Origin: a bacterium
GTDB taxonomy: Bacteria; Patescibacteriota; Minisyncoccia; Phycocordibacterales; UBA6899
DNA: 24,000 bases
NCBI GenBank assembly: GCA_043742365.1
Contig: JAYTYM010000065.1
Span: forward strand, 11,909 to 35,908
Reading direction: 5' to 3'
How positions within the stretch are numbered: position 1 is the stretch's first letter; the number at the start of each line of letters is the position of its first letter. The position numbers were made by a program, and so were the translations under genes. The notes under the pieces were generated by a model. That model was given only the letters and a program-made list of their open reading frames with translations. It did not search any database and was not told the origin of the DNA. Positions 1,036 to 23,712 of the stretch are shown here, piece after piece.

Positions 1036-1162
1036 GCTCAGATTGTACTAAATAATCAACTGCGGGGCCATTTTTATGCTCACAGCTCTAATTGATTCCT
1101 AATTTGACAAGATATTCGTTAAGAATAGAGTGATATCGGAATGTTTTTTAAAAGGCTTGTTT

Positions 1163-2323
1163 ATGAACTACCTTACTGTTGGCGTACCAAGGGAACGAAA
1201 ATTCAAAGAAGGCAGAGTCGGAATGATCCCTTCTGGCATCAAAGAGGTGATCTCGGTCGGTGAGCACGTGCGCGTGCTCGTCGAAAAAGGTGCAGGCATG
1301 CTCGCAGGATTTTCTGATGAAGACTATTTGGTCGCCGGAGCTACTGTCGTCGAAGACCAGAATGATCTCTATCGGTCCGCTGATCTTATTGTTAAGGTCA
1401 AAGAACCAACACCTGAAGAATATGGATTTCTCGCTCATTTGCGCCATAAAACGCTCTTTACCTATCTGCATTTGGCGGGGGTAGACATTGAGCTCACACG
1501 CACACTGCTGCGCAATGAAGTAACAGCGATCGCTTACGAAAACGTCGAGACAGAGTGCGAGGGAAGACGTACTTACCCCCTCCTCATTCCGATGTCCAAG
1601 ATTGCCGGAACCCAATCGATGCGTACAGCACTTCTGCGCTACACAAGCAAAAAGAAGGTGCGCGCGGTCATCATTGGTGGTGGAGTGGTTGGCGAAGCAG
1701 CGCTAATCGAGGCGCTCAAGAGCAAAGTTGCATCAATCACTGTTTTTGAACTTAACGACATTCGGATTCTCGAGCTCAATAAGCGCTATGCGAATGTAAA
1801 AGCACAAAAAACGAAAGTCTGCGTTTTGCCGATGCAGTCGATGCGGGAGGGTGAGGGCTTTTGTATGCTTACGCACGCGGATGTTGTGATAAGCGGAGTC
1901 ATGAATCCAGGTGGATCGGAAGCCCCCAAGGTTCTGACAGAGCGTGATTTTGCGGTGATGAAGAAGGGTTGTCTTATTGTTGATGTGGCAATTGATCAGG
2001 GCGGTTCAACAGAGTGGTCAAAACCCACACATCAAGGTGAGACGTACGAAAAAGATGGGCTCGTATTCTCATGCACAGCAAACATCCCCGGATCAGTGCC
2101 TCACGAGGCGACACTCGCTCTCACAAGCGCCACACTGCCCTATGTGAAGCTTTTTGCAGAGTACGCAAAGCAGCATCCCCACTCACGTGAATGGTGGCTA
2201 CTTAAGGACCACCTAGACTTACGCCACGGCTTGCAGACATGGAGAGGCTCACTAACTAATAAGCCGGTATCCTCGAAACACGGAATATTTCGTGAATACT
2301 GTCCTTTGGAAACATTTTTTTAA
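1163..2323 (+). CDS. ald: Alanine dehydrogenase / PNT-alpha family NAD-dependent dehydrogenase
   Basis: The N-terminus VGVPRERKFKEGRVGMIPSGIKEV..VLVEKGAGMLAGFSDEDY and LIVKVKEP..LFTYLHLA match AlaDH family motifs. The Rossmann motif is IIGGGVVGEAA. I start at ATG 1163 (MNYLTVGV) rather than the GTG at 1130. Confidence 0.75.
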   Translation: MNYLTVGVPRERKFKEGRVGMIPSGIKEVISVGEHVRVLVEKGAGMLAGFSDEDYLVAGATVVEDQNDLYRSADLIVKVKEPTPEEYGFLAHLRHKTLFTYLHLAGVDIELTRTLLRNEVTAIAYENVETECEGRRTYPLLIPMSKIAGTQSMRTALLRYTSKKKVRAVIIGGGVVGEAALIEALKSKVASITVFELNDIRILELNKRYANVKAQKTKVCVLPMQSMREGEGFCMLTHADVVISGVMNPGGSEAPKVLTERDFAVMKKGCLIVDVAIDQGGSTEWSKPTHQGETYEKDGLVFSCTANIPGSVPHEATLALTSATLPYVKLFAEYAKQHPHSREWWLLKDHLDLRHGLQTWRGSLTNKPVSSKHGIFREYCPLETFF

Positions 2324-2335
2324 GTACACACAAAC

Positions 2336-2365
2336 AACTCCGCAAGAATCTTGCGGAGTTTTATT
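2336..2365 (+). terminator. Intrinsic terminator after ald
   Basis: Hairpin AACTCCGCAAG-aatc-CTTGCGGAGTT is followed by TTATTAT. Confidence 0.65.
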
Positions 2366-2378
2366 ATATAATTCGACA

Positions 2379-2798
2379 ATGAAAGTCAGAAAGCTTAATT
2401 TTGGGTATATTTTTCGATTTGAAAAAGGGGATGAACTCATGTCTACCTTAGTGAAATTCATCTCTGACAATCAGAAACCTTTTGCTTCGTTCACACTCAT
2501 TGGTGCGACCACTGATGTGGAGTTGGGATTTTTCTCACTAAAAGACAAGGCATATCACTGGAGAAACTTCACTGGTGAATTTGAGATCGTGGGAGGTGTG
2601 GGTAATATTTCTCTTTATGAAGAAAAACCGATGATACATCTGCATATTACAATTGCCGACGATGAATACCGGGCATACGGTGGGCACGTTAGGAAACTCA
2701 TCGTAGGAGCAACGTGCGAGCTTACCCTTTTTACATCGAAGGTGGAGATTGAGCGCAAATTTGATGAGGGGACAGGACTGAATTTATTGGAGGTGTAA
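2379..2798 (+). CDS. PPC (DUF296) domain protein
   Basis: About 139 aa starting at MKVRKLNFGYIFRFEKGDEL. The pattern LIGA..vELgf......f.G.fEI..l.GNIs....p..HLH....d......GGHv is typical of the PPC/DUF296 fold. The upstream part of ORF 2292 runs through the ald terminator and is discarded. Confidence 0.65.
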   Translation: MKVRKLNFGYIFRFEKGDELMSTLVKFISDNQKPFASFTLIGATTDVELGFFSLKDKAYHWRNFTGEFEIVGGVGNISLYEEKPMIHLHITIADDEYRAYGGHVRKLIVGATCELTLFTSKVEIERKFDEGTGLNLLEV

Positions 2799-2805
2799 AA
2801 TATCA

Positions 2806-2914
2806 TTTTAGCAGGGACTCTCGCCTTACAGGCGCTGTACATCCTTCGTATTTCGCAGGCGAAATATACTTAGGGTCTTCGAGCCCTGCCGCAAGCTTTG
2901 CTTGCTTGGGGGCA
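2806..2914. repeat. Family-A tRNA-3'-end-linked structured module, tRNA-Lys copy
   Basis: Read on the minus strand: TGCCCCCAA (revcomp of the acceptor 3' strand), hairpin GCAAGC/GCTTGC, GCAGGGCTCGAAGAC (revcomp of the T arm), long hairpin CCTAAGTATATTTCG..CGAAATACGAAGG, ATGTAC, hairpin CGCC-TGTAA-GGCG, then GAGTCCCTGCT (a degenerate copy of the tRNA's GAGCCCTGCT). Confidence 0.6.
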
Positions 2915-2918
2915 CAGC

Positions 2919-2942
2919 AAAAAACCGCTTACGCGGTTTTTT
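2919..2942. terminator. Bidirectional hairpin terminator between the module and tRNA-Lys
   Basis: AAAAAACCGC-ttac-GCGGTTTTTT, with an A-run on one side and a T-run on the other. Confidence 0.6.
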
Positions 2943-2947
2943 CCTGA

Positions 2948-3020
2948 TGCCCCCAGCAGGGCTCGAACCTGCGACCGTTAGCTTAAAAGGCTACTGCTCT
3001 ACCAGCTGAGCTATAGGGGC
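2948..3020 (-). tRNA. tRNA-Lys (anticodon UUU)
   Basis: The reverse complement folds as a cloverleaf. Acceptor is GCCCCTA/TGGGGGC, anticodon loop CTTTTAA, T arm GCAGGTTCGAGCCCTGC. CCA is not encoded. Confidence 0.93.
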
Positions 3021-3057
3021 ATTTATTTCTTAATTACAATTCTTTAGACCTCTCCAG

Positions 3058-3171
3058 TTTACCCTGATACCTACCAAAACAGCATATAGCGGCATTACTT
3101 GCTCACACTAACAAATTACTGACTACTTCACTTTACCCTGATACCTACCAAAACAGCACATAGGGGTATTT
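3058..3171 (-). repeat. Two tandem 74-bp units upstream of tRNA-Lys, each a degenerate copy of the tRNA 5' part
   Basis: 3058-3097 and 3132-3171 share tttaccctgatacctaccaaaacagca(t/c)atag(c/g)gg(c/t)att. Their reverse complements (GCCGCTATATGCTGTTTTGGTAGGTATCAGGG and ACCCCTATGTGCTGTTTTGGTAGGTATCAGGG) align to the tRNA-Lys 5' end GCCCCTATAGCTCAGCTGGTAGAGCAGTAGCC. Confidence 0.55.
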
Positions 3172-3218
3172 ATTATCCAAAAGGGAATATGTGGAGATTA
3201 GCACAACCTCTGGGTTTT

Positions 3219-3596
3219 TTAAAGAGGAAGATCGAATGCGTGAGGACCGGCACCAAGGAAAAGCAGAGAAAGCGATACTACCCCAAGCAAAAGATAATAT
3301 TTTACTGTTTCAGGCGTAAACGACGCATTCTTGTTTTTGAAATAGATAGCCAACAGCGAAAGGGTGAATCCAATGACCCCAACTACTTGAACGTATAGGC
3401 CAAGGAAAAATCCCAAGCTAAGTAAAATGATGAGCGTTCCGAGTATCAACCACGCAAGACTTTCCTGACCACTCTTCGCGTGGCTAGAGCGCATGAAGCT
3501 GTATCCAATGAAGAAAAAGTAAAAACCCAAGAATATACGGAATATAAAAGGCACATACCAGCCCCAGTCGAGTAATTGTGGAAATAGTGACAACAT
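3219..3596 (-). CDS. Small four-TM membrane protein, DoxX-like
   Basis: 125 aa with four hydrophobic segments. The C-terminal GAGPHAFD resembles the DoxX GAGxxSxD ending. Assignment is by pattern only. Confidence 0.5.
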   Translation of the reverse strand: MLSLFPQLLDWGWYVPFIFRIFLGFYFFFIGYSFMRSSHAKSGQESLAWLILGTLIILLSLGFFLGLYVQVVGVIGFTLSLLAIYFKNKNASFTPETVKYYLLLGVVSLSLLFLGAGPHAFDLPL

Positions 3597-3650
3597 GCTT
3601 TGTATTATATCATGAGAAAATTCATCTATTAATGACCGTCAAATTACTCT

Positions 3651-4136
3651 ATGAAAGATACTGATGTAAAAAATATTCATGTGTTACTTCATGACATCCG
3701 CAGCGCACATAATGTCGGGTCTATGTTTCGTACTGCAGATGCAATAGGGGTAAGCAGTGTCTTCCTTTCAGGTCACACCCCATGCCCACTTGATAGATTC
3801 GGTCGTCCTGTAGCCGAGATTGCGAAGACCGCACTCGGGGCTGAGCAAAGCATAAGCTGGTCTTATGAAAAAGACCCAATTAAAGTCATAACCCAACACA
3901 AGGAATTAGGATATGCCATCGTAGGACTTGAACAAGATGAGCGAGCGGTTGACTATAAACAATTCTCCGCAACAAATAAAGTACTCTTTCTTGTAGGAAG
4001 CGAAGTGTTGGGGATTTCGAGCGAGATTAAAGAGCATTGCGACGTGCTTATCGAGATACCCATGCACGGTAAAAAAGAGTCTCTCAATGTCGCTGTTGCA
4101 TTCGGTATTGCCATGTTTCGACTTTTCGATAAATAA
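3651..4136 (+). CDS. SpoU/TrmH-family RNA 2'-O-methyltransferase
   Basis: SPOUT motifs are present: RSAHNVGSMFRTADAIG, LVGSEVLGIS and IPMHGKKESLNVAVAFGI. Confidence 0.85.
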   Translation: MKDTDVKNIHVLLHDIRSAHNVGSMFRTADAIGVSSVFLSGHTPCPLDRFGRPVAEIAKTALGAEQSISWSYEKDPIKVITQHKELGYAIVGLEQDERAVDYKQFSATNKVLFLVGSEVLGISSEIKEHCDVLIEIPMHGKKESLNVAVAFGIAMFRLFDK

Positions 4137-9330: not shown

Positions 9331-9466
9331 GGGTGAAGGGCTTCGATTCCTCGATAGGAGTATCTTCCATTACGTGGACGGTACACCTTTCGTATTTCGA
9401 AGACGAAATATACTCAAGGTTTTCGATTCCTATTCAGAAGCCGAGCAGTTGGCTTCTTCTCGGGCA
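9331..9466. repeat. Family-A module, proximal copy at the tRNA-Arg(GCG) locus
   Basis: Minus strand reads TGCCCGA, GAAGAAGCCAACTGCTCGGCTTC hairpin, ATAGGAATCGAAAACCTT, GAGTATATTTCG-tctt-CGAAATACGAAAGG, TGTAC, CCA-CGTAA-TGG, then TCCTATCGAGG (a copy of the tRNA T-stem/acceptor). Confidence 0.6.
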
Positions 9467-9513
9467 TGTTATACAAAAAGACAGCACAATGTGCTGTCTT
9501 TTTGTATAACATG
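9465..9513. repeat. Perfect 23-bp inverted repeat with a 3-nt loop, probably a bidirectional terminator
   Basis: 9465-9487 (catgttatacaaaaagacagcac) is the exact reverse complement of 9491-9513, with loop aat. The right arm overlaps the last 2 nt of tRNA-Arg. Confidence 0.8.
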
Positions 9514-9583
9514 CCCTCGATAGGAATCGAACCTATATTTAAAGTTCCGCAAACTTTTGTCCTATCCATTGAACGACGAGGAC
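9512..9583 (-). tRNA. tRNA-Arg (anticodon GCG)
   Basis: Reverse complement is GTCCTCG-TC-GTTC-AATGGATA-GGAC-A-AAAGT-TTGCGGA-ACTTT-AAAT-ATAGG-TTCGATT-CCTAT-CGAGGGC-A. All four stems pair. Confidence 0.88.
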
Positions 9584-22991: not shown

Positions 22992-22993
22992 AC

Positions 22994-23297
22994 TCACCAC
23001 ACAAACTTTCTATACTCCGCTCCTGAGACGTACGCGACTATATTCTTTTGCAATTCCCCCACACGCCCACTCACCACACAAACTTTCTATACTCCGCTCC
23101 TGAGACGTACGCGACCATATTTATTTGCAGTTCCTCCTCACACTCACTGCACAAGTTCTCTATGATTACGTTTATTAGACGTAAGCGACTATATTCTTTT
23201 GCAATTTCACCACAAACCCAGATGTTCCAATAACATTTATGCTTCGATTCTAAGGCGTACGAGACCTCATTCTTTGGCAGTTCCCCCTTCTAGTCAC
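22994..23297 (-). repeat. Tandem array (4 units, 74-77 bp) of degenerating copies of the tRNA-Leu(CAG) upstream spacer plus 5' two-thirds
   Basis: Units start at 23023, 23100, 23174 and 23250, and each resembles 22955-22993 of the real gene. The 29-nt spacer tcaccacacaaactttctatactccgctc is identical at 22994 and 23071. Similarity decays with distance from the gene. Confidence 0.75.
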
Positions 23298-23712
23298 TTA
23301 CAGTACAAGCTCATCGCGACCCACTTTTTTTGAAATACATGAATTCATTTTATTTATTATTCGTATAAAACGACTTAACACAAGCATATTTAAGTAATTC
23401 ATAAGAAAATTAAATTTATCTAAGCAACATAATTTGCCCAACTGTCCTTTACCTTTTTTCCTACACTCTGTCCTTTATGAAACATCTGGCTGTAATAAAG
23501 AGTGTAGCAAAATGAGTAATGTTTATCTAGCTTTTATCCAAAACAACAAAATTGATTTGATGCAATACCTTTGACAAGACGTCAATCTTTACGATGAGCC
23601 TGCTGGTGCTAGGGTGGATATAGTCAAATTGTTGTTTGACAATCGAACCGAAGAGGGGAATCGCACAGGCGAAACCTTTGTCGGCCTTTTTCACTTTGAA
23701 AAGGACTGTATC

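Follow-up and report, generated by a model that had tools for sequence, protein, structure and literature searches.

Tandem copies of the tRNA 5′ part with a shared rewritten D arm upstream of tRNA-Lys(UUU) in Patescibacteria

Introduction

The tRNA-Lys(UUU) gene of a member of the Patescibacteria is directly preceded by two short tandem units that begin much like the gene itself, which raises the question of whether the units are copies of the tRNA 5′ end and, if so, how they arose and what they might do. The locus lies in a 24,000-nt stretch of contig JAYTYM010000065.1 (assembly GCA_043742365.1), hereafter the window. Patescibacteria have tiny genomes and single-copy tRNA genes, and tRNA expression in these organisms is little understood. 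A first-pass annotation, made from the sequence alone, had described the repeats as two pseudo-5′-part units that decayed independently from tRNA-Lys, and had pointed to a like array upstream of tRNA-Leu(CAG).

Results

Organization of the tRNA-Lys(UUU) locus

The features of the locus are listed in Table 1. The tRNA-Lys(UUU) gene is present as a single copy in the assembly, and the two units adjoin its 5′ end head to tail and in phase with periods of 74 and 73 nt. A repeat search paired positions 3047-3096 with 3121-3170 (family D7; 50 nt, 86% identity, spacing 74). The two strings reported in the first-pass annotation were correct in sequence and placement, running on the minus strand from 3093 to 3058 and from 3167 to 3132. 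Unit 1 is composed of a pseudo-head, GCCGCTATA, followed in order by a rewritten D-arm box, the bases C25-A26-G27 and a purine-rich spacer of 43 nt of which the last bases are AATAAAT. Unit 2 is composed of the pseudo-head ACCCCTATG, a box identical to that of unit 1 and a spacer. The two pseudo-heads are versions of the acceptor strand, which reads GCCCCTATA in the real tRNA-Lys. Non-coding spacers of 43-47 nt separate the copies, with about 43 nt falling within each unit. The motif TGTTAGTGT in the spacer of unit 2 matches the pattern TGnTAnnnT and precedes the unit 1 head by 11 nt, the geometry of tRNA promoters in this lineage.

The upstream ORF, for which no Pfam match was found, was used as the anchor for comparing the locus with empty sites in relatives. 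Neighbours in the region 1130-4136 of the window encode an alanine dehydrogenase/PNT-type protein (1130-2323), a PCC-domain protein (2292-2798) and a SpoU-family RNA methylase (3651-4136). Elsewhere in the window, a perfect 27-nt inverted repeat with arms 100% complementary and 1 nt apart (9462-9516) overlaps the 3′ end of tRNA-Arg(GCG).

Table 1. Coordinates of the features at the tRNA-Lys(UUU) locus.
Feature	Position in window	Strand	Basis and remarks
Functional tRNA-Lys(UUU) gene	2946..3020	-	ARAGORN 2946-3021; Rfam RF00005 2948-3020, 68.9 bits
Unit 1, proximal, 73 nt	3021..3093	-	Sequence read; anchored alignment p = 2e-4; repeat family D7
Unit 2, distal, 74 nt	3094..3167	-	Sequence read; anchored alignment p = 3e-3; 56/72 identity to unit 1
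Rewritten D-arm box of unit 1, GCTGTTTTGGTAGGTATCAG, corresponding to tRNA positions 10-27	3064..3083	-	Read and alignment
Rewritten D-arm box of unit 2, identical to that of unit 1	3138..3157	-	Read and alignment
Extended -10-like box TGTTAGTGT in unit 2 spacer, candidate internal promoter	3105..3113	-	Regex scan of spacers
Candidate ancestral promoter TTGTGCTAATCT	3195..3206	-	Fits TGnTAnnnT; 27 nt upstream of unit 2 head
Upstream ORF, 125 aa	3219..3596	-	ORF list; syntenic upstream of tRNA-Lys(UUU) in relatives

Homology of the units to the tRNA 5′ end

Anchored alignment of tRNA positions 1-27 with the first 31 nt of each unit gave scores of 10 for unit 1 and 8 for unit 2. The mean for random genomic 31-mers was 2.2±1.4, corresponding to p values of 2e-4 and 3e-3. 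Plain local alignment of the whole tRNA with 450 nt of flanking sequence was not significant (score 16, z 0.3). Thus, the proposed derivation of the units from the 5′ part of tRNA-Lys was upheld by the anchored alignment and not by the plain local one. The comparative data agree with the anchored result. Several orthologous units in related genomes begin with a perfect 12-nt tRNA-Lys head, and a survey of upstream regions in this genome found the gene's own first 10 nt copied within 300 nt upstream for 12 of 34 tRNAs as opposed to a non-cognate rate of 1.35%. This comparative sequence evidence points decisively to a tRNA origin of the units.

The extent of the copy was determined from its right end. 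In 65 of 81 copies, positions 26-27 agree with the cognate tRNA (null 16.7±3.3), while positions 26-28 do so in just 7 of the 81. These counts place a sharp end of the copy at the base of the anticodon stem (27|28) and show that it takes in tRNA positions 1-27. The "pseudo-5′ part" is shorter and has a sharper edge than was envisaged. Candidate structures of other extent were tried and rejected. The 3′ parts of the units are unlike the tRNA 3′ part (summed matches 372 vs 349±25), contrary to full-length decayed tRNA copies. Unit middles align to the cognate anticodon arm no better than to non-cognate or shuffled arms, which is at odds with a copy reaching that arm. Long units are also not dimers of 37-nt units, as their second halves contain no match to the tRNA 5′ end (z about 1; p = 0.35 and 0.27 for the units of the window).

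Relationship between the two units

Units 1 and 2 are 78% identical overall (56 of 72 positions), with 92% identity in the first 37 nt (33/36) and 66% in the spacers (23/35), the latter confirming the resemblance between spacers noted earlier. Both units have derived traits that are absent from the tRNA, namely a T added after A9 and an identical 20-nt rewritten D arm that is followed by GGTAAA. The shared traits and the 92% identity indicate that the units were copied from one another or from a common rewritten ancestor, contradicting the claim of independent decay from the tRNA. Decay of a random kind is further opposed by the presence of the same rewrite in copies of a dozen tRNAs from many genomes.

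The rewritten D-arm box

The box has the 20-mer consensus TAGCTGTYTTGGTAGRTAWC. In the tRNAs with a box that were inspected, the native D arm is TAGCTCAGYTGGTAGAGC or a near variant, and the rewrite in the copies changes CAGY at positions 13-16 to GTYT and AG at positions 23-24 to RTAW. Bases specific to the tRNA stand on either side of the box, which places the rewrite inside a local copy of the tRNA and argues against the box being an end of some foreign element. Conservation was evaluated with 13 Lys(UUU) units from 11 genomes. Pairwise identity per column was 80-99% in the box, 30-55% in the head and 20-50% in the spacer. The real tRNA cannot serve as donor of this sequence, so the box is maintained independently of it, and its far better conservation relative to the rest of the unit suggests selection as a sequence-specific cis element.

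The remainder of the unit is variable. No sequence common to the spacers of different tRNA species was found, and the 5′ units have no portable core besides the rewritten D arm. The composition of the spacers on the tRNA strand is 43% A, 9% C, 21% G and 26% T. In a first sample, 28 of 40 units were 71-76 nt long and a minor class measured 36-38 nt; a wider sample resolved classes of 36-41, 48-57, 62-67 and 69-82 nt.

Distribution among the Patescibacteria

The 14-mer AGCTGTYTTGGTAG had 52 exact matches distributed over 21 of 61 related genomes compared to 3 for the reversed control. At nearly all of 30 loci inspected the box was upstream of a tRNA with a matching head, and in 3 the locus contained no called tRNA. 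The 20-mer TAGCTGTYTTGGTAGRTAWC was found in at least 120 stretches of species-representative genomes, almost all labelled Patescibacteria, where about 17 chance matches are expected for the whole collection as estimated from the degeneracy of the pattern. Taxa among the matches listed were Paceibacteria/Parcubacteria, Nomura-, Kaiser-, Zambryski-, Lloyd- and Taylorbacteria. Paceibacteria made up the larger part, and the box is present in well over a hundred genomes at species level. A set of 80 loci contained 96 boxes, 84 of which had a tRNA on the same strand within 400 nt; those without were mostly at locus ends or before tRNAs missed by ARAGORN. The 7 nt before the box were identical to the acceptor strand of the downstream tRNA (7/7) in 56 of the 84. 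Twelve tRNA species were found with a box: Lys(UUU, CUU), Thr(UGU, CGU, GGU), Val(UAC, GAC), Phe, Asn, Ala(UGC), Met and Ile(UAU). Thus, the suggestion that tRNAs other than Lys have similar arrays applies beyond tRNA-Leu(CAG) to the genome and the lineage as a whole. No description of these units was found in the literature, and the family of 5′ units in Patescibacteria is apparently undescribed. What is new is that the units share a box, stop at a fixed 27|28 end, fall into length classes and are spread widely across taxa.

Some loci have peculiarities of their own. An orphan box-like sequence, CTGTTTTGGTTTAATACAG, follows a GC-rich 7-mer near position 2133 of contig C84 of this genome (G000), on which no tRNA was called. 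At two loci (L065, on G207:C3, and L072) tRNA-Thr(GGU) follows three identical 37-nt units. ARAGORN makes no call there, and the gene has an apparent long insertion past the anticodon region that may be a tRNA-gene intron. About 167 nt upstream of the tRNA-Lys(UUU) gene of another locus (L013, on G013:C2) is an older dead copy of tRNA-Lys with an insertion of ~73 nt between the D and anticodon arms and a D arm that is partly rewritten (GGTATCAG), positions 13-16 being intact.

Synteny and displacement of the gene

Within the genus, the syntenic tRNA-Lys(UUU) locus contains 0, 1 or 2 units. Relatives without units have the same C-terminal end of the ORF and an AAAAA tract, followed by boxes of the TTGTGTTAGTAT type and, 27-50 nt farther on, the tRNA, the 5′ end of which is placed where the outermost pseudo-head (unit 2) stands in this genome. 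This synteny indicates that the outermost pseudo-head marks the old 5′ end of the gene and that the working gene has been displaced downstream. The units are therefore located between the conserved upstream promoter, for which TTGTGCTAATCT is the candidate here, and the gene. The leader upstream of the outermost copy has a modest similarity to the leader of the real gene, modestly above the null, and the left end is not sharp. Duplication of the leader is plain at few loci, G313 being an example, and most spacers are unrelated to the ancestral leader.

Discussion

Origin of the units

The explanation preferred here, with a probability of roughly 0.55, is serial partial tandem duplication of the leader together with tRNA positions 1-27, the box being kept by selection for a function in cis. 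A segment that began in the leader and had its other end exactly at tRNA position 27 would have been duplicated in tandem, and the resulting unit would later have been duplicated whole with unequal exchange to yield units 2 and 1. The old 5′ end would have been kept beside the old promoter and the working gene shifted about 148 nt downstream. The units would most likely be co-transcribed with the tRNA as a long, purine-rich and unstructured 5′ leader that is removed by RNase P, and unit 2 may supply a second promoter. The same process would have operated on many tRNA genes of the Patescibacteria, with the common TAGCTCAGYTGGTAGAGC D arm always becoming the TAGCTGTYTTGGTAGRTAWC box in the copies. 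The right end could be produced by a polymerase that stalls or slips at the base of the anticodon hairpin, with misaligned re-priming upstream. Under stalling, the right end should be sharp and the left end diffuse, consistent with the ends observed. Neither ectopic gene conversion from box to box nor site-specific recombination in the D arm would be expected to fit the configuration of the product or the very short homologies, and both were rejected on this reasoning.

Serial duplication leaves some results poorly explained. Random duplication should give neither a constant right end nor one multi-base rewrite repeated in a dozen tRNA species, so that a site-specific mechanism or else strong convergent selection would be required. 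Most spacers also bear no relation to the ancestral leader from which they should derive, and the length classes are not accounted for. The identical rewrite requires a deterministic mutational step at birth or convergent selection, of which selection is leaned toward because the box outlasts both head and spacer. The best guess for the function of the box is a site linked to transcription or processing. A more far-reaching proposal, which is tentative and clearly less probable than serial duplication with a retained box, is that the box is an undescribed, selected cis element of Paceibacteria tRNA genes, made by site-specific or structure-directed duplication and controlling the transcription or maturation of single-copy tRNAs. 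Possibly, the box belongs to a cycle that converts copied D arms into new tRNA promoters.

Alternative explanations

Each unit could instead add a promoter before the single-copy tRNA, provided either by the rewritten box, in which TGG-TAGRTA from the D loop looks like an extended -10, or by an extended -10 in the spacer. The box is about one indel and one substitution away from the lineage tRNA-Lys promoter TTGTGTTAGTATC when aligned by MAFFT, and the short units of 36-41 nt place it 11-13 nt before the start of the next tRNA as in real promoters. Spacers are enriched in TG(n0-2)TAnnnT (11 vs 4.8±2.1 expected), and TGTTAGTGT is present in unit 2. The copied D arm of tRNA-Gly(GCC) in this genome has become TGGTAAAAT, a perfect extended -10. 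In addition, tRNA promoters are rich in TAGnnT hexamers, found in 24 of 56 TGnTAnnnT boxes within 80 nt upstream of unit-less tRNAs vs about 13% for protein genes, a contrast that is only suggestive given that orthologous loci are non-independent. The bias would fit tRNA promoters that often descend from copied D loops. The lineage, however, needs T at -7. In this genome's upstream regions TGnTAnnnT occurs 191 times in sense and 81 times in antisense orientation, and variants with A, C or G at -7 are not enriched. The box (TGG-TAGGTA) has A at this position. The A at -7 and the lack of use upstream of other genes led to rejection of the box as a generic promoter. Replacement of C25 by T, the simplest way to make a promoter of the D arm, is not what the copies show, and a proper -10 is present in the spacers of about a third of the long units with none in unit 1. 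Tandem promoters are considered unlikely as the explanation for the units. A scan of positions 2800-3400 for the promoter consensus found none. The possibility that the box is the operator of a regulon was rejected on finding no CTGTT-N9-AACAG dyads elsewhere in the genome. The rewritten Gly copy is outside the window, on contig C16 of this genome (G000), about 130 nt upstream of tRNA-Gly(GCC), where TGGTAGAAC has become TGGTAAAAT.

Somewhat less credible than tandem promoters is that the units are scars of a small non-autonomous insertion element that entered tRNA genes site-specifically at 27|28 (or 12|13), regenerated the 5′ part of the gene and stacked by repeated insertion. The whole block is present or absent between relatives, the 27|28 junction is fixed with stereotyped sequence beside it, and most spacers do not resemble the ancestral leader, all as expected of an insertion. 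Yet the bases specific to each tRNA on both sides of the box (head positions 1-7 and positions 26-27) identify it as a rewritten local copy. Neither terminal repeats nor a conserved right end were found, and the absence of spacer sequence conserved across tRNA species likewise differs from a MITE-like element, as do the random-looking box-like sequences found at other places in the genome. Units of 36 nt are too short to hold an element, and units 1 and 2 are whole-unit copies of each other. Just two matches, both attributable to chance, were found on viral contigs, a result that also led to rejection of a phage or plasmid attP origin. Nor do the units resemble an att duplication created by an integrase, as no element lies between the copies, which are separated by just 43-47 nt of non-coding sequence, and the box has no viral association. 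The locus also differs from a CRISPR array in having two units only, "spacers" that are 66% identical and repeats derived from a tRNA.

Improbable is a functional leader RNA, in which the mimic of the tRNA 5′ part acts in cis or trans by pairing with the 3′ acceptor strand, by guiding or delaying RNase P, or as a protein decoy, for example for a D-arm-binding or tRNA-cleaving protein. Such a role is consistent with the conservation of head and box on the sense strand of the tRNA, with the purine-rich asymmetry of the spacers, which is typical of transcripts, with the end of the copy at a domain boundary of the tRNA, and with the few units in which the head folds on its complement (-14 kcal/mol in two). 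On the other hand, the head is less conserved than the box, the box hairpin has no compensatory changes, and the head does not generally pair with a complement downstream (-5.4 vs -4.8 and -4.6 kcal/mol, not significant), for which reason sequestration of the pseudo-head in a mini acceptor stem was rejected. Folding z-scores of +1.75, -0.63 and +1.24 indicate that the units are not structured. A structured RNA was rejected on the lack of excess folding energy and of any Rfam match at E <= 1 in positions 3021-3167. Finally, a chance likeness between the tRNA and two unrelated 40-nt repeats would agree with the plain local alignment at the Lys locus alone. The anchored alignments, the perfect heads in relatives and the cognate bases at heads (56/84) and at positions 26-27 (65/81) oppose it, and with the comparative data refuting chance its probability is negligible.

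Comparison with known systems

Serial duplication with retention of the box can be compared with several known arrangements. The tyrT locus of E. coli contains 178-bp tandem repeats that include the tRNA-Tyr 3′ end (RtT RNA, Rfam RF00391) and are co-transcribed with the tRNA. The likeness consists of tandem repeats beside a tRNA gene in which each unit starts with a fragment of the same tRNA. The tyrT repeats differ in being on the 3′ side, in copying the 3′ end, in their 178-bp length, in being restricted to one locus in enterobacteria and in having no rewrite shared between tRNAs. The units had no match to RF00391. Integrase islands and prophages create att duplications in which a partial tRNA copy is beside the intact gene, and serial events stack such copies. 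These fragments are almost always 3′ parts located kilobases away that flank an integrase-bearing element, whereas the units described here come from the 5′ part, lie at a distance of 36-80 nt and have neither an intervening element nor a viral association. The P1 and P2 promoters of rRNA operons are tandem promoter duplications in which promoter-proximal segments are repeated upstream of a stable RNA gene. The presence of a consensus extended -10 in unit 2 is similar. In contrast to P1/P2, the repeat takes in the first 27 nt of the gene and the conserved box does not fit the promoter consensus.

The fixed breakpoint, the identical multi-base rewrite and the higher conservation of the box are unlike neutral duplication scars. 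They point to either a structure-directed DNA mechanism acting on tRNA genes or an undescribed regulatory or processing signal. At a practical level, the units can confuse tRNA annotation and genome assembly.

Within the window itself, the array at tRNA-Leu(CAG) is similar in that copies of the tRNA 5′ part, repeated head to tail about every 77 nt, directly precede the gene and have a promoter-like box upstream of them. Unlike the Lys units, the Leu(CAG) copies retain the anticodon arm (to about position 42) and have another D-loop rewrite with inserted CAAAAGAA..., whereas units of the Lys type stop at position 27 and contain the box common to a dozen tRNA species. The insertion of CAAAAGAA... 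after the D-loop GG is a second stereotyped rewrite, found in the tRNA-Leu(CAG) copies (window positions 22992-23300, and another genome) and in a tRNA-Thr(CGU) copy of a Lloydbacteria genome, the loci outside the window being L093 and L138.
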